Below, in pieces: positions 1 to 13,066 of a stretch of 13,066 bases of DNA (its first letter is position 1; each line of letters begins with the position of its first letter). Where the stretch lies: contig NZ_JAEDAM010000030.1 in assembly GCF_018420025.1 (NCBI RefSeq), positions 1-13,066 of the forward strand, written 5' to 3'. The DNA is from Candidatus Vampirococcus lugosii (GTDB taxonomy: Bacteria > Patescibacteriota > Gracilibacteria > Absconditabacterales > Absconditicoccaceae). Made by a program: the position numbers and the translations under genes. The notes beneath the pieces are model-generated. The model saw only the letters and a list, made by a program, of their open reading frames with translations, had not been told where the DNA came from and did not search any database.

Positions 1-2
1 AA

Positions 3-221
3 GAAATACATATTTGTGAAGAAAATGATATATTAAATTGATGTTATTCAGAAATCAAGATAGATTCTATTTCTGATAATTTAATTAGCATTATAATAAA
101 AAATTGAAAAATAATTGATTTTAATACAGTATGCAAAAAAGGCAAGGGCAAGAGTATTGAAGTAGAAAAAAATCTATTTTTGATAAATAAAGGGAATAGT
201 TGATTTATTTTAAGATTTTAG
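3..221 (+). CDS. 3' end of an unidentified CDS entering from the left edge (72 codons under table 25)
   Basis: Frame 3 is open from the window edge to TAG at 219-221, with 4 in-frame TGA read as Gly. Translation ends ...NGKIIDFNTVCKKGKGKSIEVEKNLFLINKGNSGFILRF. The other two plus frames stop at 34-36 and 77-79. No family recognised. Confidence 0.4.
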
Positions 222-260
222 ATTAAAAGTTAAAGATTTTAGATTAAAAGTTAAAGATTT
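213..260. repeat. 21-nt direct tandem repeat AGATTTTAGATTAAAAGTTAA, two exact copies plus a 6-nt partial third
   Basis: Exact copies at 213-233 and 234-254, followed by AGATTT at 255-260. The first copy spans the TAG stop at 219-221 of the partial CDS. Confidence 0.85.
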
Positions 261-440
261 ATTACAAGAATATACATTAAATACATTATTAACTAAATTA
301 AAAAATATAAGTAAAGTTTACTTTAAAATAGATAATATATAAATAAAGTAGAATAAATAAATGAGCTTCAAGAAAAAAATTTAAATTATTTAAAATAAGA
401 TTATAAAATTTATGTAGTACATAAAAATATTTTTATATTA

Positions 441-480
441 TTCTAAATCCTTGTTTAAATCAAGGATTTAGAAATTTTAC
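441..480 (+). terminator. Hairpin terminator candidate (13-bp perfect stem, 7-nt loop)
   Basis: TTCTAAATCCTTG (441-453) pairs perfectly with CAAGGATTTAGAA (461-473). The loop is TTTAAAT and the hairpin is followed by ATTTTAC. It lies 220 nt downstream of the nearest stop codon, so which transcript it ends is unclear. Confidence 0.55.
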
Positions 481-649
481 TCTATAAAGATTAGTTATTC
501 TTTTTTAAACTAATTTTATTAATATTTTCTATTTAATTATCTATTAAATCAACAAATATTTATTATAATTGAAATATAAAAGTTTGTTTATGATTAAAAA
601 TTAAAAACTTAATATTAAAATATATTTTTTAAATATATAATATTAAATT

Positions 650-961
650 ATGAAGAAAATAAATGAAGATTTTGTTTGTGCTAAATGTTGAAAATATGTT
701 CCTATTGCCAAAATTTCTTGTAGGAATCATTGTCCTTATTGTTTTACAAGTATGCATCTGGATCAAAAAATTCCTTGAGATAGAAAAAGTGAATGTAAAT
801 GAGAAATGTTTCCTATAGAGTATAAATTATCTAATTGAGAAATTAAAATTTTATTTAAATGTAAAAAATGTTCTGATATACATTGGAATAAATCAAATAT
901 AGATGATGAAATATCTTGTTTGGATGAATATATTAAAAAATATTATATAGAATTTATTTAA
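650..961 (+). CDS. Small Cys-rich RNHCP-domain protein (103 aa), probable zinc-binding, function unknown
   Basis: ATG at 650, TAA at 959-961, 4 in-frame TGA=Gly. Translation MKKINEDFVCAKCGKYVPIAKISCRNHCPYCFTSMHLDQKIPGDRKSECKGEMFPIEYKLSNGEIKILFKCKKCSDIHWNKSNIDDEISCLDEYIKKYYIEFI. It has the literal C-R-N-H-C-P-Y-C motif plus CxxC pairs, as in the Pfam RNHCP family (recognised from memory, not searched). Confidence 0.75.
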
Positions 962-1055
962 ATCATATTAAAAATTTTTTATTTTTCTTATTTGAAATAT
1001 GCTAGGGTAGTGGTTTTTATCTTAAAAATATGATAAAAAATATAATTTCAAATAT

Positions 1056-1084
1056 TTGACATAATACAATTTTATCAATATAAT
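1056..1084 (+). promoter_or_regulatory. Perfect consensus sigma70-type promoter TTGACA-17 nt-TATAAT
   Basis: TTGACA at 1056-1061, a 17-nt spacer at 1062-1078, TATAAT at 1079-1084. This sits 44 nt upstream of the ATG at 1129. TATAAT alone is common by chance in AT-rich DNA; the full TTGACA plus exact spacing is less so. Confidence 0.6.
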
Positions 1085-1128
1085 ATTTTATTATTATTAT
1101 AAATAATTTTATTTATTCAAAAATAAAA

Positions 1129-2607
1129 ATGGAAAATTTTGTACAAAGATTAAATGAGTTGCAAGATAAAACAAGTCAATTTGATGATGAAGAAAAAAAA
1201 GATAATTTTAATAAAAAAATTGATAATTTAAAAGAAAAAATTGATAATTGAAATGAAATAAATAATGAAGAAATTGAAGAAGAAATTGAAAGAATGGAAA
1301 CTGAATTGAAAGATATAGAACAAGAAAAAGAAAAAGAGAAACAAGAATTAAGTAAAGAAACTAAAGATCAATTGGAAATATTATCTAGTTCAATAGAAGC
1401 TAATAATTTAATAGAATCTTGAGCAAAAATAAAAATTGCAGATAGTATAGATTTAGATTTGCAAGAAACAAAAGATAAAACTAGAAAAATAACATTTTTG
1501 GAAAAAACATTAAGATCCTTTTGAGATATATGAAAATTTATATCAAATGTTTTGTGGGGCAAAACTAAACAAGAAAATATTGATAGTAAAAATGATAATG
1601 AGAAAATAAGTGAACTTTTGGAAAAAAAATGATTTGCTGATAATACTGATATAATTAAATGAACTTTTAATATAATTAATCAAGTACCCTTTGACAAATT
1701 TATGAAAGAAATAAATAATGAAAATAATTCTATTGCTGATATTCAAGTTTATATTGATACTTATTTATCTTCAAAAGAAGAACCTGAAAACTTGAATTTT
1801 AATCAAAAAAATTTTTTGGAAAAATATATTACATTGATAAGATTAAATAAAGATTATATAAATGAAAATATGAAAGAAAAAAATCATAAATATACAATTT
1901 CTGATATCAATGATAAATTATTTTCAATATGAACCAGTCAAGCTGTTTTTAATGAATGAACTACAATTATAGATTGGAAAGATTATTACAAAAAAGAAGA
2001 ATGAAAAAAATATAATAGACCAAATTCAACATCAAATTGATCACAATTGTATGCAAATGAAATTTATATTGATAATTATGAAAGTTTGCAAAATCTTACA
2101 TTAGAACAAATACGAAATCTTGATGAACAAAATATATTAGATATACTAGATTATAGTATACAAGATTCAATTAAAAATTCTTGAAATGCTTTACCTATCA
2201 ATATTTCTTATTTTAAAGATCAAGAAAAACAAAAAGCTTATGAAAAATTAGCTTGAGAAAAAAATATAGAAATACCAAATCAAATTAATTTTAATGATAA
2301 TTATCAACTTGTTATTTGACAAAATAATTATATCATGAAATATGAATGGAATTCAATTAATCCATTTAAATCACGAGAACGATATCAAGCAAAACCAAAT
2401 GATTGATACCAAATGTGATTTGAAAACGATAATTGAACTATAAATATTAATCTTGATGCAGAAATATGATGAAATTATAGTTATAGAATTGATTACAATA
2501 AATTTTCTGAAACAGTATCATCACTTATTTATAATTGAAATTATGAATTAACTTGATTAGATGCTCATAATAGAATATGAAATAAAATTAAATTTATGAA
2601 AACATAA
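1129..2607 (+). CDS. Hypothetical protein, 492 aa: N-terminal charged coiled-coil-like region, C-terminal Gly/Asn/aromatic-rich region
   Basis: ATG 1129 is the first start after the in-frame TAA at 1081-1083. The frame was checked codon by codon to TAA at 2605-2607 and contains 21 in-frame TGA. The standard-code ORF 1702..1932 is an internal fragment in the same frame. The protein starts MENFVQRLNELQDKTSQFDDEEKKDNF and ends NYELTGLDAHNRIGNKIKFMKT. No family recognised. Confidence 0.8.
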
Positions 2608-2615
2608 ATAAAAAT

Positions 2616-2641
2616 AATCCAGAATTTAATCTGGATTTTTA
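2616..2641 (+). terminator. Rho-independent terminator candidate after the 492-aa CDS
   Basis: AATCCAGA (2616-2623) pairs with TCTGGATT (2630-2637). The loop is ATTTAA, a T-run follows (2637-2640), and the hairpin is 9 nt after the stop codon. Confidence 0.65.
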
Positions 2642-2743
2642 TATATTAATAAAATATTTTTTTGCGATATATAAAAAAATCTATATACTAATAATTAAAG
2701 TGTATTTTTGATTTTTTTTATATGTTAAAATAGTCTAAAACTA

Positions 2744-5700
2744 ATGCATAATTTCTTAAATAAAATATTTTGGTTTATATTAATATTATTTATATTGATT
2801 TTTTTATTTTTATCTAATGAATTTGAAGGTCTTTGATTTATTGTTATTATTATTTTAATAACATTAAAATTAACTTATTTTTCAAAAGAAAATATAGAAA
2901 AACAAATTAAAGAATATAAAAATAATATTAAACAAGAAATAATAAATGAGTTAAATATTGAAATAAATAATTCTACATATACAAAAGAACAAGAAACTAC
3001 AGTTGATAAAGAACAAGAAGAATATGTTGATAATCAAAATATTAATTATGATAATTCTTTTGCTGAAACAAAAGAAAATATATTGACAAATAATAATATT
3101 AAAAATAATAATTTAGACAATAGTATAAAAGATAATAATTTAGATAATAATTCTTTTGCTGAAACAAAAGAAAATATATTGATAAATAATGATATAAAAG
3201 ATAATAATTTAGACAATAGTATAAAAGATAATAATTTATCTATATCTGAAATAGATGAAAATGAAAAAGATGAAAATGAAAAAGATGATAATTTAACATT
3301 AGATCTTAAAATAAAATATTCTATAAAATCATTTTTTTCAACAAATATAATGGCAAAGATATGATGAATACTTTTGTCATTATGATTATTGTTTTTTATG
3401 AGTTTAATTTATACTTATTTAAATGATTTTGCAAAAATAATTATATGATTTTCATTCTGATTTATTTTATTTTTATGAGCTTTTTATTTATGAAAAAAAT
3501 GATATTCACTTGAAAGTAAAATATTATTTTGAGTTTCAATTCTTATAAATTATATTGTTATACTTTCTGGTAGATTTATATTGGGTTGAGAAGATTGATA
3601 TTTATGACCTATTCTAACTTTTATTTTATTATTAATGAATACATGATTTTCTGTATATATATCATATACTATAAAATCAAATAATATTTTATTATTTTCA
3701 ATATTTTTTGCATATATTATTCCATTTTTAATTTGATGAGAAGATAGTGCAAATAATATTTTATTAATTATTATATATTCTGTATTTATAAGTTTAGCTT
3801 CATTAGCTTCTTCATATATTAAAAATAAAAATTGAGAAGAATGAACTAGTATTGTATTAAATTATTTTAGTATCATATTATGATCATTGCTTATATTAAC
3901 TACTTCCATTTCTACAAGTCATGAATATTTATTTATATTACAGCTTTTGTGATTTAATTTAATTGTATTTTTAAATATATATTTTGCATATACTAATAAT
4001 TACAAAAAACATATTATAAATATGTTTGTAGCATCTTTTGTATTATTATTATTATTTTTAATTGTTTGAGTTTCTTCCCTTTGAGAATGAATTCAAAATA
4101 TATGGATTATATTATCATATGTATTTTCATTATTTTGAATAAATATATTTATATTGTATTTAGTTTTATCTTGATTTATTGTTTGACAAATTATTTATTT
4201 GTTTTATGTTTCTTTATTTCTTTTCTTTGTATTTGTATTAAGTTTTAATAATTTATTGTTTTTTTATTTTATATTCCCATTGATTCTATTTTTAAAATTT
4301 TTGATATTGTATTTAATATTTTATAAATCTTGAAAAAAAACTCAATTTTATATATTTATTATATTAATATGAGTTTTCATATTATATAATAATTGATATT
4401 TATTTATGAATAATTCATATGAAATAACATTGATTAATTATTTTATGATATTTTTTACTTCATTAATATATTTACTATTTTCATACTTTTTTTCTTTCAA
4501 AAAATGATATAATTTTTTATATGTTTTATGAACTTATTTTTTCATAGCTATTTTTACACCTTTTATAGATTATGAATCTAGCAATATTATTTATACTTTA
4601 TTCTTTATAATAATTTTTAATATACTTAGTTTCTCTCTTCCTATTTTTAATAAAAATTTGATAGAATATAATATATACAGTCTTATCAAATGACTTTTGG
4701 TTTCTATATTGTATGTTATATTTTCATATTATGAATTACGAAATTCTTTTTGAATTTCTATTAATTTTTGATATTTTGTTATTTTAATTTCAATTATATG
4801 TTTTATAATTTGATATTATATTAGTATCAAAAATAATATAAATATACTCTCTAATGAGAAACTAGAAGAAAAACAAGAAAATATAAGAAATTCTTCGTAT
4901 TTATATATTTTTAGTTCAGTTCTTATATTTATGCTTTCAATTATTATTATTTTTTCTGATAATATATATTGAATTGATGCTTTTGCACGGCTTTGTATAT
5001 CATCTATTGTATTTTTACTTTATAGTAGAACTTCTATACATAAATTATTAGTTTTTTGAATAATAATTTTTACTATGTGAATAATAAAATATTTTGCATC
5101 TCTTTGAGAAATTGTAAATAGTTCTTCATATGAAATATATTATATTTTTTCATTTTTAATTATATTGTTAATTCTTTATATAAATATAATAAAAACTAAA
5201 AAAGCAAAAGATAATTATCTTTATTATATATATTTTCTTCATTTTTTATGAATATTAATTACATATGGTGGAATATATGTTATTTTAAATTCGTATTTTG
5301 ATGTTAATTTATTAGTTTATTTATGAATTGTTAATTTAATTTCATATATATCATATAAAGAATTAAATTTTCCTTTATTATTAAAAGTTAATTGATTTAT
5401 TATTTATATGATAACTTTTTTTCAATTATTTATAACAAATTTAATAAATCCATATTTTTATAATTATATATTTACATTAATTATTTTAATAATATCATTT
5501 TTAGATATTTATTATTACAAATTAAAATATAAATATTTAACATATATATTAATAATATATATATTATTAATATCTTCAATTTATATATATAACATTGTTG
5601 GTAATCATATTGCACTAACTATATATTGGTGATTAATATCTTTATTTTCTATATATTATTGATTTATTTTTATGAATCCTATATATAGATCTTTTGGTTT

Positions 5701-5893
5701 ATTGATTATTTCAATTACTATTACTAAAATGTTAATGTATGATATATGGGCTAATTTAGATAATTGAGTTATAAGAGTTTTTGCATTTATGTTAATATGA
5801 AGTATAATGATATATTTATCAATGTTATATTGAAAATATAAAATATCTGCAAAATCTGATTTCAATATACTGATAGATAAGTTAAAAAATTAG
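2744..5893 (+). CDS. DUF2339-like giant polytopic membrane protein (1049 aa) with an N-terminal Asn/Asp/Lys-rich low-complexity insert
   Basis: ATG 2744 is the first start after the in-frame TAA at 2726-2728. The frame was verified codon by codon to TAG at 5891-5893 and contains 47 in-frame TGA by hand count. Layout: N-terminal TM helix (FWFILILFILIFLFL), about 170 aa of charged low-complexity sequence, then many hydrophobic segments. The C-terminus RSFGLLIISITITKMLMYDIWANLDNGVIRVFAFMLIGSIMIYLSMLYGKY resembles the conserved DUF2339 C-terminal motif (from memory). The standard-code ORFs 3083..3364 and 5408..5632 are in-frame fragments. Confidence 0.8.
3053..3238 (+). repeat. In-frame 96-nt (32-codon) tandem duplication inside the DUF2339-like CDS
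   Basis: Copy 1 (3053-3148) encodes NSFAETKENILTNNNIKNNNLDNSIKDNNLDN. Copy 2 (3149-3238) encodes NSFAETKENILINNDIKDNNLDNSIKDNNL. There are only a few substitutions between them. Just downstream, GATGAAAATGAAAAA is repeated twice (DENEKDENEK). Confidence 0.85.
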
Positions 5894-6014
5894 TTTAAAT
5901 ATAAAAAATATAATCAAAAAAACTTGTAATAAACTAAAATATATCAAATTGTATTTTGTATCATTTTTTGTGTTAAATATATTATATATTTTCTCAAAAT
6001 TAGTTAATTTTCTC

Positions 6015-6042
6015 TTGAATTTTTCAATAGCATCTATATAAT
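6015..6042 (+). promoter_or_regulatory. Candidate dnaK promoter TTGAAT-16 nt-TATAAT
   Basis: TTGAAT at 6015-6020 and TATAAT at 6037-6042, with a 16-nt spacer, about 60 nt upstream of the dnaK ATG. A short inverted repeat TATCAT-N3-ATGATA at 6051-6065 follows. The AT-rich background makes this weak evidence. Confidence 0.4.
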
Positions 6043-6101
6043 ATAGGTGCTATCATAAGATGATATGATAAATTATTTACATTTTAAAAAATAAATAAAT
6101 T

Positions 6102-8012
<1,911 letters not shown>

Positions 8013-8024
8013 TATATTAAATAT

Positions 8025-8058
8025 AAAAAAGAATTGTATTAATTTACAATTCTTTTTT
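8025..8058. terminator. Bidirectional hairpin terminator shared by convergent dnaK and rsmE
   Basis: AAAAAAGAATTGTA (8025-8038) pairs perfectly with TACAATTCTTTTTT (8045-8058); the loop is TTAATT. The A-run and T-run arms give a U-tract on either strand. It starts 13 nt after the dnaK stop, and its right arm overlaps the rsmE stop codon (8057-8059). Confidence 0.7.
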
Positions 8059-8782
8059 AATATATAAAATTTTTTAAAATCCAAGAAGAAACTATAATTC
8101 ATGTTTCTGCTCTCAAAACACTATTTCATAAAGAAATTTTCTTATAATTAAATTTTTCTAATATTGAATAATCATAATTTGAAAATCATCATTCTGGACC
8201 ACATATTCCCCATAAATTTTTTTTATCAAAATTTGATTTTTCAATATTTATTAAATCAATTCCCCCAAAATCAAATATACATAAACTTATATCTTCCAAA
8301 AAATCTAATAAATTATCTATTTTTTTTATTTTTGGTAATGCAAACATTCAACTTTGTTGTACTGCATCTATTGATATTTTTTTAAATTTTTCAAATTTTT
8401 TATCTGAAATATTTTTTATTTGACTATTTGAAGATTTCCAAAAAATAATATTTTCTATTCATATCTCAGTTAATTTTTGGACTATTAAATCCATTTTATC
8501 AAAATTATTTAGTATTGGAACTAAATATCAAGATTTTTTTTGTAAAATATTTATTTTTTGACAAAAAGTAATTTTTGCAATTATTTCATCTTTCTTAATT
8601 TCATATAATATTACTGTATATACATTTATATTACTTAATTCTCAATAAAAAAAAGGTTTATGAATTTGAAATTCATATCCAGATTTAGCTCTAAGAACAT
8701 TTTTAATTTTATTAACAACATTTAAATCTCAAATATAAATATAATTATTTTTTTTATCAAAACTAGTTATAAATTTTTGCAT
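8057..8782 (-). CDS. rsmE: 16S rRNA (uracil1498-N3)-methyltransferase RsmE, 241 aa
   Basis: Hand translation from ATG (8782) to TAA (8057-8059) gives MQKFITSFDKKNNYIYIGDLNVVNKIKNVLRAKSGYEFQIHKPFFYGEL. The C-terminal part, LWGICGPEGGFSNYDYSILEKFNYKKISLGNSVLRAETGIIVSSWILKN, matches the RsmE IGPEGGF...LG.RILRAETA signature. There are 9 in-frame TGA, including both glycines after PE in PEGGF. Confidence 0.85.
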
Positions 8783-8790
8783 ATTATTTT

Positions 8791-9240
8791 TTATTTTTCT
8801 ATAGATTTATCTATTTTTTCTGATGATGATGCCAAACTAGCAATAATTATTTTTCAATCTATAAACTTATATATAGGTATAATAAAAAGTCTAATTAATA
8901 AAAGAATAGCAATAAAATAGAATATAAAAACATATTCAAAATCTTCTCAAAAATCTTCTATTCAAAAATAGTCAACAAATATAATATATGAAATTATTAT
9001 ATTCATAATCTCCAAAAGAATAAGTACAGTTCAATCATCATTAAAATTTCTTATATACTTAATATATTCTTTTGTTATATTTATTTTAGAAACTTTTTTC
9101 TTATATTTTTGAAATATTTCATTTCAAGGATAATATTTATTTGCAAAATTGACCAAATTTTTACATCTAATATAATCTTTATCTTGCCAAGATTTTTTTA
9201 TCATTTGTTCCAAATTCATTTCATGTACTGGATTTTTCAT
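8791..9240 (-). CDS. Small membrane protein, paralog A (149 aa): about 70-aa soluble N-domain plus two predicted TM helices
   Basis: ATG at 9240, TAA at 8791-8793, frame checked codon by codon. The N-terminal part is MKNPVHEMNLEQMIKKSWQDKDYIRCKNLVNFANKYYPGNEIFQKYKKKVSKINITKEYIKYIRNFNDDG. The rest is TVLILLEIMNIIISYIIFVDYFGIEDFGEDFEYVFIFYFIAILLLIRLFIIPIYKFIDGKIIIASLASSSEKIDKSIEK. It ends 8 nt before the rsmE start. No family recognised. Confidence 0.75.
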
Positions 9241-9318
9241 CTAATATGTTTAATATGAATAAACTATTTAATTTAAAAAATTCTATTTTTATATAAAATA
9301 TATTAAAAAACTAAAATT

Positions 9319-9714
9319 TTAATAACTTAAAACTTTTTTTCAATAAATAATATTATAAATAGAAAAAATATTAAATCTAATTAATAAAAGAATAGCAATA
9401 AAATAAAATATAAATGTATATTCAAAATTTTCTATTCAAAAAAATTTAATAAATATTAGATATGTAAAATATATACTAATAACTTCCAAAATAATAAATA
9501 AAATTCAATTATCATTAAAATTTCTTACATATCTAATATATTCTTTTTTTATATTTATTTTAGAAATTTTTCTTTTATATTTTTGTCATATTTCATTTCA
9601 AGGATAATATTTATTTGCAAAATTGACTAGATTTTTGCATCTAATATAATCTCTATTTTTCCAAGATTTTTTTATCATTTGTTCCAAATACATTTCTTGT
9701 ACTGGATTTTTCAT
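9319..9714 (-). CDS. Small membrane protein, paralog B (131 aa), tandem duplicate of 8791..9240
   Basis: ATG at 9714, TAA at 9319-9321, frame checked codon by codon. The N-terminal part is MKNPVQEMYLEQMIKKSWKNRDYIRCKNLVNFANKYYPGNEIGQKYKRKISKINIKKEYIRYVRNFNDNG. The rest is ILFIILEVISIYFTYLIFIKFFGIENFEYTFIFYFIAILLLIRFNIFSIYNIIYGKKVLSY. 58 of the first 70 residues are identical to paralog A. Confidence 0.75.
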
Positions 9715-9740
9715 TTTATTTATAAATTATTATAAATAAA

Positions 9741-10733
9741 TTATTTTATTTTAGAAATCTTAATTTTTTCATCTAACTGATCTTGAACAGATTTTAATAA
9801 CTTAGGACTTTCTTTTAATAAATTTGAAAGATTTTCTTTTCATTGTACTTTTTTGTCTCATACTGAATAAAATGCTCCTGATCTTTGAATTATATCAAAA
9901 AACATAGCAGCATCCAATAGATCAGACATTTTATCAATTCATTGATTAAATTTAACAGTTATTTCAGCAGTTTTAAATGGAGGTGAAATTTTATTTTTAA
10001 CAACTTTAATTTTAGCTTTATATCATATTTGTTCTTTATCTTCTTCTATCTTTTCTCACCTTCTAATTTCTATTCTTTGAGATGCAAAAAATTTAAGTGC
10101 ATTTCATCCAGATGTAACTTCAGGACTTCAAAATATAACACCTATTTTACTCCTTATTTGATTAATAAAAATAACAGTAGTACCAGTTTTGGAAAGAACT
10201 CAAGCTAATTTTCTTAAACCTTGTGACATAAGTCTTGCTTGTAATCACATATGACTGTCTCCCATATCTCATTCTATTTCAGCTTTTGGAACTAATGCTG
10301 CAACACTATCAATAACTATTAATTTAATAATTCATGTTTGTGCCAATTCTTGTGCAATTTGTAAAGCTTGTTCACCATAATCAGGTTGTGATAAAAGTAA
10401 ATCATCAGTTTTTACTCATAATTTTTTTGCATATTCTGGATCCAAAGCATGTTCTGCATCAATAAATGCAGCCATTTCTCATTTTTTTTGTATTTCTGAA
10501 ATGGCATGTAATGCAAATGTTGTTTTACCACTACTTTCAGGTCAATAAATTTCAACAATCCTACCATGAGGATAACCACCACCAACTATAGTATTCATAA
10601 TATATGATCATGTAGAAAATGTACTTATCTTACCATAATCAATATTGTCTCATAATCTCATTATAGATCATTTTCAAAATTCTTTTTCAATACTTTTGAA
10701 TGCATCAGTTAATATTTGTTTTTTATCTGTCAT
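9741..10733 (-). CDS. recA: Recombinase RecA, 330 aa
   Basis: The translation starts MTDKKQILTDAFKSIEKEFGKGSIMRLGD. It contains [28 protein letters not shown] (Walker A), [99 protein letters not shown] and KVVKNKISPPFKTAEI. About 18 in-frame TGA all fall at conserved RecA glycines. Length is 993 nt and it ends at TAA (9741-9743). Confidence 0.97.
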
Positions 10734-10761
10734 AATTATTATTTAATTTATAAATTTAACA

Positions 10762-11448
10762 CTATGATTGTTCTTTATGTGAATTTGGATTATTAACTTT
10801 GAATAATAAAGATACTATTTCATTTATATCTAATTTTTCACAAAATAATCAAATTCACTTCAATCATTCTTCAACTATATTTGTTCTTACATCCAAATGT
10901 TTTTTATTCTTTACAAAATTTCTATATCTACTTACAACTTTTTCTGGATTTTCTTTTGAATCTAAAACATCCATCAATTTTTTCCACCAAGGCTTAGATA
11001 TTTCTTGAGTATCATTAGCACCATGATAATAAGGTATTATCACATAAAATTCTTTAGTATATATTAATCATTGATTAGAATTTATTTTTTCAAGATAATT
11101 ATAATATTCTTTACCTTGTCGTTTCAAAACATCATTTTCAATTCCATCAATTTTTTCTTCAATGAAAGAAATGTAATCAGTAAGATCAAGATAAGTACTG
11201 CGAGCTAATATTTGTATAGAAAAATCTAATCAATTTATAAATCTTTTGTACTGTTCTATAACTACTTGTTGTTCATCATAATTTCTAAGATCAAGATTTA
11301 ATCAAAAGACTTTAATAATAGATCTTAATCATCAATCTTTTAATATAACTACATTATTTCTTATCTCTGATATATCCAATAGATTCTCTGTATTAAATTG
11401 ATTTTCATTTTGTTTAGATTTTTTAATTTTTTTAGCTTCGTCATACAT
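10762..11448 (-). CDS. Hypothetical protein (228 aa) resembling the N-terminal non-ATPase region of VirB4/TraE-type (Gram-positive style) conjugation ATPases; no ATPase domain present
   Basis: ATG 11448 is the first start after the in-frame TAA at 11455-11457. TAG is at 10762-10764 and the frame was checked codon by codon. Translation: MYDEAKKIKKSKQNENQFNTENLLDISEIRNNVVILKDGGLRSIIKVFGLNLDLRNYDEQQVVIEQYKRFINGLDFSIQILARSTYLDLTDYI...KEFYVIIPYY...GLFCEKLDINEIVSLLFKVNNPNSHKEQS. The CDS call is solid. The family resemblance is pattern recognition from memory only. Confidence 0.75.
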
Positions 11449-11502
11449 TTTTAATTATACAATCTTTTTAATATAAAATTAACAAAACTTTTATCAAACA
11501 TA

Positions 11503-12690
11503 TTATTTCAATAAATCCTCAAACAAAGTATCTAAATCAATTTCTTCATCTTCATCTTCATTTTCATCAACAGAATTTAATTCAGATATTTTAACTTCAA
11601 ACTCATTTTTTATATTCAATAATATTGCATATATCAAATTTCTATTTTGAAATGAAAGATTAAAAGATTCAACTTGAGAAAATATACTTGATAATTTTTC
11701 CAACTTATCAGACAAAATTTCTGAATCTTCTATATTTTTAACATAATTTTGAGTCATTAATTTTATATCTTGATATTCTTGTTTATTTTTAGTATTAAGT
11801 CTATTAAACATATTATCTACTTCTTTTTTCCTTTCAGATAAACTTTTTTCAGCTTTTTCAGATAAAGTTTCTCTGTTTATTTCTATATTTTCATTATTTT
11901 CTATGTTTTCATTATTTTCTATATTTTCATCATTTATATTTTCAAATCAAACTTCCAAAACTTTTCAATTCCACCATCATAAAGTAATATCAGCTTGATA
12001 AAAATTATTTCAATCTGTATAAGAAACTCTAGCAGTATTTGATTCAATCCAATCTATATTTGTAACTTCAAAATATTCTTTACCAATAGGTTCATAACTA
12101 GACATAGATGTTATATATCTATGTATATGATTATTGTATATTTTAGTAAAATCTAAACTATTAATATATTCTTCTGTATATATTTCTTCTGGACTTTTTC
12201 CTTCAATATTTTCTTCTTCAACATTTTCTTCTTCAACATTTTCTTCTTCAACATTTTCTTCTTCAATATTTTCTTCTTCAATATTTTCTTCTTCAATATT
12301 TTCTTCTTCAATATTTTCTTCTTCAATATTTTCTTCTTCAACATTTTCTTCTTCAATATTTTCTTCTTCAATATTTTCTTCTTCAACATTTTCTTCTTCA
12401 ATATTTTCTTCTTCAACATTTTCTTCTTCAACATTTTCTTCTTCAATATTTTCTTCTTCAATATTTTCTTCTTTAATATTTTCTTCTTCAATATTTTCTT
12501 CTTTAATATTTTCTTCTTCAATATTTTCTTCTTCAATATTTTCTTCTTCAATATTTTCGTTATCTTGTTCCGCTCTTTCAAGTTCTTCTCTAAGAGCATC
12601 CAAATCATTATCTAAATAATCTTGAGAACTAACAAAATGTGTACCAAAAACAACTATAACAAAAAATGTAAATATAATATTTCTTTGCAT
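11503..12690 (-). CDS. Secreted hyper-acidic tandem-repeat protein (395 aa): signal peptide, 24 x (E-E-N-I/V-E) pentapeptides, small globular domain, ENIENN repeats, coiled-coil-like acidic C-terminus
   Basis: ATG at 12690, TAA at 11503-11505, 1188 nt. The standard-code ORFs 12010..12690 and 11503..11811 are in the same frame and join through TGA=Gly at 12010-12012 (...ARVSYTD-G-NNFYQADITLGWWNGKVLEVGFENI...). The joining segment was checked codon by codon. The N-terminus MQRNIIFTFFVIVVFGTHFVSSQDY looks like a Sec signal peptide. Confidence 0.8.
11881..11934 (-). repeat. 18-nt tandem repeat x3 (encodes the NDENIE/NNENIE hexapeptides) inside the acidic protein CDS
   Basis: Plus-strand units are TTCTATATTTTCATTATT (11881), TTCTATGTTTTCATTATT (11899) and TTCTATATTTTCATCATT (11917). 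Confidence 0.85.
12199..12558 (-). repeat. 15-nt in-frame tandem repeat x24 (plus strand TTCTTCTTCAAYATT type) encoding ENIEE/ENVEE/ENIKE pentapeptides
   Basis: 360 nt of head-to-tail 15-mers, read directly. The only variable positions are AAT/AAC (Ile/Val) and TTC/TTT (Glu/Lys) on the plus strand. All three frames on both strands lack standard-code stops here, which produces the overlapping artefact ORFs in the track. Confidence 0.95.
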
Positions 12691-12727
12691 TAATCTTTTA
12701 ATTTAAATTATAAAAATTTATATAAAC

Positions 12728-12755
12728 ATTATAATAAAGAAATTAAATAATTCAA
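12728..12755 (-). promoter_or_regulatory. Candidate promoter TTGAAT-16 nt-TATAAT for the acidic repeat protein gene / minus-strand gene run
   Basis: On the minus strand, TTGAAT lies at 12755-12750 and TATAAT at 12733-12728, with a 16-nt spacer, about 37 nt upstream of the ATG at 12690. These are the same hexamers and spacing as the dnaK candidate. The AT-rich background applies here too. Confidence 0.4.
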
Positions 12756-12772
12756 GTAATTTTTATTTTTTT

Positions 12773-12799
12773 GTGCCAGCAATGTTAAATTGTTGGTAC
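12773..12799. promoter_or_regulatory. Imperfect 10-bp-arm palindrome GTGCCAGCAA-N7-TTGTTGGTAC, an isolated G/C-containing element in an AT-rich intergenic region
   Basis: Left arm 12773-12782, loop TGTTAAA, right arm 12790-12799. Eight Watson-Crick pairs plus two positions that are G-T on the plus strand and A-C on the minus strand. It sits 18 nt upstream of the candidate -35 at 12750-12755. Confidence 0.35.
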
Positions 12800-12994
12800 A
12801 AATAAGATCTTTTTTAATTTTTAATAAACAATATTATGTATTTATATATTAAATATATTTTAGGTAATATAAAAATATTTTGTTGAGTTTAAGAATTATT
12901 ATTTGATTTTTATATTAATTATTTATACTATTATTGACATTTTAATTTTTTATTAATATTTTAAACTTGCTGTTAAAATATTTATTTTAATATA

Positions 12995-13066
12995 CTAAAA
13001 TTCATTATTCAAAAAAGTATTTAATTTTTGTTCAAAATCATCATAAACATTAATTATAGAATCTAT
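12995..13066 (-). CDS. Possible 3' end of a CDS entering from the right edge (23 codons)
   Basis: The minus-strand frame is open from the window edge to TAG (12995-12997) and reads IDSIINVYDDFEQKLNTFLNNEF. It is too short to identify or to exclude chance. Confidence 0.3.
   Translation of the reverse strand: MDSIINVYDDFEQKLNTFLNNEF

Follow-up and report, generated by a model that had tools for sequence, protein, structure and literature searches.

What does UGA mean in Candidatus Vampirococcus lugosii, and is translation table 25, in which UGA encodes Gly, the whole of its genetic code? The DNA in which we addressed this question, hereafter the window, is one whole contig of this organism, 13,066 bp in length with 19.6% G+C. 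Here UGA is a sense codon with the meaning Gly; it is not equivalent to UGG and supplies most of the Gly codons. As a whole, the contig is best explained by a code in which UGA is the main Gly codon, only UAA and UAG terminate, and CGA and CGG probably encode Trp, a reading in which we have very high confidence.

With only TAA and TAG as stops, ten genes tile positions 650-12690. They cover 86.4% of the window from start to stop codon, approximately 87% from stop to stop, and 93.7% of positions 647-12702. An earlier note on this DNA, made from the sequence alone, had given a coding fraction of about 89%, which is reached once a probable truncated gene at 3-221 is added to the ten. In their reading frame the ten genes comprise 3764 codons, among them 154 TGA, 47 GGN, and 18 TGG, with no internal TAA or TAG. 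This lies well outside chance: a random frame of the same composition would be expected to hold approximately 244 TAA, 60 TAG, and 60 TGA. The two off-frames of the same genes hold 428 TAA and 154 TAG. TAA and TAG have thus been purged from the reading frames and TGA has not. All ten genes contain in-frame TGA, which makes up about 4% of their codons and 77% of the Gly codons in the contig (154 TGA versus 47 GGN). Eight of the genes end in TAA and two in TAG, as the same note had indicated in finding no gene that ends in TGA. This last point is partly circular, the open reading frames (ORFs) having been defined by TAA and TAG, though the gene lengths match those of homologs. Under table 11, the longest stop-to-stop frame in the window is 230 codons and every gene is reduced to fragments, with dnaK split into 34 pieces, recA into 19, and rsmE into 10; the note was right to treat the standard-code ORF track as mostly artefact. 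Its in-frame TGA counts for these three genes (33, 18, and 9), its ratio of roughly two TGA to one GGN in dnaK, and its separate use of TGG in the rsmE motifs FWKSS (position 8440) and LWGICG (position 8212) were all reproduced here. The three genes are as follows.

6102-8012, plus strand: dnaK, HSP70 match with E = 1.5e-207 (TGA masked); 33 TGA versus 15 GGN, no TGG, no CGN
8057-8782, minus strand: rsmE-family 16S rRNA methyltransferase, PF04452 match with E = 3e-24; 9 TGA, 3 TGG
9741-10733, minus strand: recA, RecA match with E = 3.4e-109 (TGA masked); 18 TGA versus 13 GGN

The amino acid at UGA was determined by non-circular tests, in which TGA was masked as X and comparisons were made only with standard-code proteins or genes. 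Against the solved structure of E. coli DnaK, 22 of 30 TGA columns fall on Gly (chance P ~1e-18). For RecA, 16 of 18 columns are Gly in both the E. coli and M. smegmatis proteins, and for RsmE the count is 3-5 of 7 aligned columns across three RsmE structures, with the GPEGGF motif of the window gene written with TGA-TGA. None of the 55 aligned TGA columns in these comparisons falls on Trp.

A comparison at the DNA level with 14 standard-code dnaK genes (L004-L017) gave the same answer. In 19 of the 33 dnaK TGA columns, Gly is present in at least 12 of the 14 genes, and 17 of these columns are invariant. Pooled over all TGA columns, 297 of 431 non-gap cells are Gly, compared to a background of 8.4%. 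None of the 14 genes has a premature in-frame TGA, and several end in TGA. Codetta-style log-odds for TGA over 31 columns are +65.1 bits for Gly, -64.8 for Ser, and -92.5 for Trp, and all other dnaK codons with at least six occurrences decode as standard. The remaining dnaK TGA codons lie in variable or lineage-specific columns. The earlier claim that every TGA in these housekeeping genes sits on a family-conserved Gly was therefore overstated, as it applies to 19 of 33 columns in DnaK, 16 of 18 in RecA, and 3-5 of the 7 aligned in RsmE.

Close relatives also inform these columns. The DnaK proteins of L001, L002, and L003 are 83%, 76%, and 68% identical to that of the window, and their dnaK genes contain 30, 24, and 12 in-frame TGA codons, respectively. 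Of the genes in the window, these three loci contain dnaK alone. At 24 of the 33 window dnaK TGA columns, at least one of these relatives has GGN, and none shows TGG. The exchange between TGA and GGN also occurs at columns where distant DnaK proteins have Asp, Lys, or Ser, indicating lineage-specific glycines. Within the window, the Gly columns of dnaK and recA are free of TGG.

We also ran the profile hidden Markov model comparison that the note had proposed, and for all three proteins table 25 scores above table 4, which in turn scores above table 11. DnaK (TIGR02350) receives 850.6 bits with table 25, 769.0 with table 4, and 59.4 for the best table-11 fragment; the equivalog cut-off of 822.55 is cleared solely by the Gly translation. 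RecA (TIGR02012) receives 457.7 bits with table 25 and 394.1 with table 4, and RsmE (TIGR00046) receives 119.2 and 94.2 bits, with no match for table-11 fragments in either case. The masked alignments, codon comparison, profile scores, and TGA-to-GGN exchange in relatives agree that UGA is Gly rather than Trp or stop, as the note had proposed.

That UGA encodes Gly here is already known, and it is textbook for SR1/Gracilibacteria. Moreira et al. 2021 reported it for V. lugosii itself and used Prodigal with table 25 (PMC8080830), and PMC8629427 credits code 25 to work from 2013, including Rinke et al. 2013. The note's remark that the recoding is not a new discovery was thus correct, as was its taxonomic guess of SR1/Gracilibacteria: the contig belongs to V. 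lugosii, a predatory bacterium of the Absconditabacteria/SR1 within the Candidate Phyla Radiation (CPR). The table-25 recA product is 100% identical over 330 amino acids to the NCBI RecA of V. lugosii, followed by Ca. Absconditicoccus praedator (75%) and then metagenome-assembled genomes (MAGs) of Absconditabacterales, and a neighbor-joining RecA tree places the window inside the Absconditabacteria clade as sister to L021. The contig resembles other users of code 25 in that UGA is Gly, UAA and UAG are the sole stops, UGG stays Trp, and the lineage is a low-GC, reduced member of the CPR. For UGA there is no difference from that code, and the contig is extreme only in its 19.6% G+C and its use of TGA for 77% of Gly codons. 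Its G+C content lies below the 0.21-0.53 range of clade genomes in PMC8629427, a comparison of a single window with whole genomes.

Whether table 25 is the complete code depends on CGA and CGG. For Absconditabacteria, Codetta predicts UGA to Gly plus CGA and CGG to Trp (Shulgina & Eddy 2021, PMC8629427). Their study makes no mention of V. lugosii, and we found no paper linking Vampirococcus to CGA/CGG. The 3764 codons of the window contain 5 CGA, 1 CGG, 1 CGC, 0 CGT, and 62 AGA, or 13 CGA and 3 CGG per 10,000 codons, with AGA as the dominant Arg codon. AGG is also Arg, as it falls on invariant Arg residues of RecA, DnaK, and the RNHCP motif (the AGG at 722 is the R of RNHCP). The single CGC occupies a position at which all 120 homologs of a TraC-like protein have Arg. 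The six CGA and CGG codons are found in three genes.

1129-2607, plus strand: orphan protein g1129, 492 amino acids; 21 TGA; CGA at 2113-2115, 2374-2376, and 2380-2382
2744-5893, plus strand: DUF2339-type polytopic membrane protein, 1049 amino acids, PF10101 match with E = 3e-9; 47 TGA, stop TAG; CGA at 4739-4741 and CGG at 4988-4990
10762-11448, minus strand: TraC-like protein, assigned to PF26593 by precomputed annotations; 8 TGA, and TGG-TGG at the WW motif; CGC on an invariant Arg column (11200-11202) and a CGA that likely encodes Trp (11119-11121)

The TraC-like family is the most informative of these. Among 120 homologs, two conserved Trp columns show a mixture of W and R (W69/R51 and W85/R26), and five conserved Arg columns never show W. 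At the DNA level, the "R" in the conserved Trp columns is CGA in L026 and CGG in L027. The window gene has TGG-TGG at the conserved WW motif, an indirect sign that UGG remains Trp, since the sequences that define these Trp columns belong to this clade too. A protein-level W in the public collection may be a mistranslated TGA, and the column of the window CGA was judged on DNA codons only. This codon (11119-11121, minus strand, R110 of the TraC-like protein) lies in the motif NDVLK-x-QG. In the seven closest lineages the column contains five CGA and two TGG and never AGA, although CGA represents only 1-7% of the nominal Arg codons in those lineages. For the last two lineages we predicted in advance that W in the protein should correspond to TGG and R to CGA, which proved correct in both.

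A wider survey of 20 ortholog clusters (3651 columns) is consistent with this pattern. TGG occurs in 10 of the 14 columns with CGA and in 4 of the 11 with CGG, the other partners being mostly Leu, Phe, or Tyr, and the commonest partner of TGG is CGA. AGA, by comparison, pairs with Lys and Arg (97 and 52). The dnaK and recA genes of all the relatives have no CGA or CGG at any of their many Arg positions. The window resembles the extended Codetta code in the great rarity of CGA and CGG, in AGA as the main Arg codon, and in CGY staying Arg. All the relatives we examined have CGA or CGG on Trp columns, and among the seven closest lineages the CGA at 11119-11121 alternates with TGG. We consider it likely that V. 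lugosii reads CGA and CGG as Trp, with CGY and AGR remaining Arg, and table 25 is probably not its full code. On this reading the window would add one more member to a variant that had been predicted before; the direct evidence in the window is suggestive but thin.

Mechanistically, UGA would be decoded by a tRNA-Gly whose anticodon is UCA and which glycyl-tRNA synthetase charges, and release factor 2 (RF2) would have been lost, so that UGA would no longer be read as a stop; both steps follow the literature on the clade (PMC8629427). Extreme A+T pressure, as reflected in the 19.6% G+C, may favor TGA as the least G+C-rich Gly codon. Across related loci, TGA makes up a broadly decreasing share of Gly codons as locus G+C rises, from approximately 90% at 23% G+C (L023) to 25% at 42% G+C (L027), a trend that may reflect this pressure. 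In the portion of the supplements of the V. lugosii paper available to us (PMC8080830), RF2, tRNA-Gly, RecA, and DnaK are not mentioned.

Several observations count against the combined reading of UGA as Gly and CGA/CGG as Trp. ARAGORN detected no tRNA gene in the window, and in 13 related loci it detected no tRNA(UCA), tRNA(UCG), or tRNA(CCG), returning only His, Lys, Trp(CCA), Gln, and Met tRNAs. About one third of the dnaK TGA codons are in variable columns and are uninformative alone. Peptide support comes from a sister lineage only, a BD1-5 relative in which 40 Gly-specific peptides versus 1 Trp-specific peptide were found at UGA at the highest stringency (PMC4032931). For the arginine codons, three distant relatives have AGA, AGG, or AAA at the column of the window CGA (11119-11121). 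The window also differs from the Codetta-predicted code in that just one of its six CGA/CGG codons can be directly compared, with the other five located in the orphan g1129 and the poorly alignable membrane protein.

These last two points also speak for plain table 25 as the complete code, with CGA and CGG as ordinary rare Arg codons. This is how the V. lugosii genome was annotated, and at two columns in relatives CGA is matched by CGT/CAT or AAA. On the other side, the window nests in the clade for which Codetta predicts Trp, the Trp columns of the TraC-like family carry CGA and CGG while its Arg columns never carry W, CGA meets TGG in most of its shared columns, the seven closest lineages have only CGA or TGG at the window CGA, and relatives do not use either codon for Arg in dnaK or recA. 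We therefore consider plain table 25 an unlikely, though not negligible, description of the code, and favor Trp at CGA and CGG.

The assignment of UGA to Trp, as in table 4 of Mycoplasma, Spiroplasma, and some insect endosymbionts, would also suit an A+T-rich, reduced genome. Like the code determined here, table 4 makes UGA a sense codon in such genomes, with RF2 loss as the presumed mechanism, and it opens the same ORFs as table 25. Many gene callers behind the public collection also chose TGA as Trp (P0002, P0121, and P0241), and W stands at conserved Gly columns in 90 of the 120 nearest homologs of the TraC-like protein. The difference is in the amino acid. No TGA column falls on Trp in any reference, the log-odds for Trp are strongly negative while those for Gly are positive, and relatives swap TGA with GGN and never with TGG. 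Translation with Trp costs DnaK 82 bits, RecA 64, and RsmE 25, and DnaK falls under its equivalog cut-off. Trp at UGA is thus extremely improbable, having already been refuted by the column tests.

Still less probable is that TGA is a normal stop, with the genes being pseudogenes or assembly and amplification artefacts of a single-cell genome produced by multiple displacement amplification (MDA) or multiple annealing and looping-based amplification cycles (MALBAC). The V. lugosii genome was indeed obtained from whole-genome-amplified consortia (PMC8080830), and the table-11 ORFs are fragments. Yet all 154 interruptions are TGA, there are no internal TAA or TAG codons where approximately 300 would be expected, the TGA codons fall on Gly columns, and there are no frameshifts. 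The same TGA pattern is found in independent assemblies and relatives (L001-L003, L018-L029). The absence of in-frame TAA and TAG and the conservation across independent assemblies refute this explanation. Selenocysteine or context-dependent readthrough, the least credible option of all even though UGA is a selenocysteine codon in many bacteria, is refuted by the number and position of the UGA sites, with 154 in ten genes (4% of codons), none aligned to Cys or selenocysteine positions, and no selenocysteine insertion sequence (SECIS)-type or other element found by Rfam on the window.

The remaining features of the window are listed below.

3-221, plus strand: possible 3' end of a gene truncated by the contig start, 72 codons without internal TAA or TAG, 3 TGA, ends in TAA/TAG
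650-961, plus strand: RNHCP-domain zinc-ribbon protein, Pfam PF12647 RNHCP with E = 3e-23; 4 TGA, stop TAA
8791-9240, minus strand: dupA, small membrane-anchored protein, tandem paralog of dupB; 5 TGA
9319-9714, minus strand: dupB, tandem paralog of dupA; 5 TGA
11503-12690, minus strand: secreted or anchored acidic repeat protein with EEENI/V repeats; 4 TGA

The left end of the contig (1-646) has a mostly non-coding look, with a perfect 21-bp tandem repeat of 2.3 copies at 212-260 and a hairpin at 441-473 that has a 13-bp stem and a T-rich tail. Rfam and NCBIfam scans of 1-646 gave no match, nor did an NCBIfam scan of the possible gene at 3-221. Across the whole window, Rfam returned nothing credible, the only match being a sub-threshold miRNA inside the repeat gene.

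The g1129 gene has a perfect sigma-70 consensus (TTGACA-17-TATAAT) at 1056-1084, 45 bp upstream of its start, and a bidirectional terminator-like hairpin at 2616-2637, 9 bp past its stop. Promoter-like matches across the window are not enriched, with 176 compared to 159 +/- 11.5 in shuffles. In a homolog search of 5.8 billion proteins, the sole match to g1129 was the same organism's copy, translated with TGA as Trp. By sequence comparison, g1129 is a true orphan, in line with the approximately 49% of V. lugosii proteins reported to be unannotatable. The neighboring DUF2339-type protein contains two copies of a 96-bp unit (95% matches) at 3051-3238, within its Asn/Asp-rich N-terminal region.

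In the products of dupA and dupB the N-terminal half is conserved and the C-terminal half hydrophobic, and a single-copy homolog lies downstream of recA in L020, L021, L023, and L024. Directly upstream of recA, the window has the TraC-like gene, and the arrangement is the same in relatives L020-L024, L027, and L029. In L025-L027 the TraC-like gene comes after genes with matches to type IV secretion system pilins (two in L025, two in L026, and one weak match in L027), and in L025 it is followed by a VirD4/TraG-like ATPase. This neighborhood may be what is left of a type IV secretion or DNA-uptake module. In the last gene, a 15-bp unit is repeated 23.9 times at 12201-12558 (96% matches) and encodes (E-E-E-N-I/V)n. 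The repeat opens all six frames, which accounts for the spurious overlapping table-11 ORFs at 12134-12619 on both strands.

The finding that UGA is Gly is useful as an annotation key rather than as a discovery. Table 11 shatters every gene, and table 4 yields full-length but wrong proteins. Public copies of the V. lugosii genes (Logan SRR13241708/09; P0002, P0121, and P0241; loci L018 and L019) write TGA as W, and W at TGA accounts for 18 of 18 differences from the table-25 product in RecA, 8 of 8 in the TraC-like protein, and 21 of 23 in g1129. Mistranslation with table 4 is common among the public proteins of this clade. Two of the related MAGs, L001/L021 (CAZACQ01, GCA_964483725.1) and L002 (CAYMVT01), are labelled "uncultured Candidatus Peribacteria bacterium" in NCBI. 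Both L001 and L002 carry in-frame TGA in dnaK, and in CAZACQ01 TGA exchanges with GGN; with such labels on recoding MAGs, a taxonomy-based choice of code could go wrong. These translation errors carry over into profile building, structure prediction, and proteomics databases for the clade.

Table 25 in turn probably mis-writes Trp as Arg at CGA and CGG. If so, the deposited table-25 proteome would have Arg where the cell makes Trp, including six sites in this contig: R329, R416, and R418 of g1129, R666 and R749 of the membrane protein, and R110 of the TraC-like protein. These six codons would represent about one quarter of all Trp codons in the contig. The CGA column of the TraC-like protein, with R or K in distant relatives and CGA or TGG in the seven nearest lineages, would then be a site at which a left-over CGA changed its meaning to Trp simply because the code around it changed.

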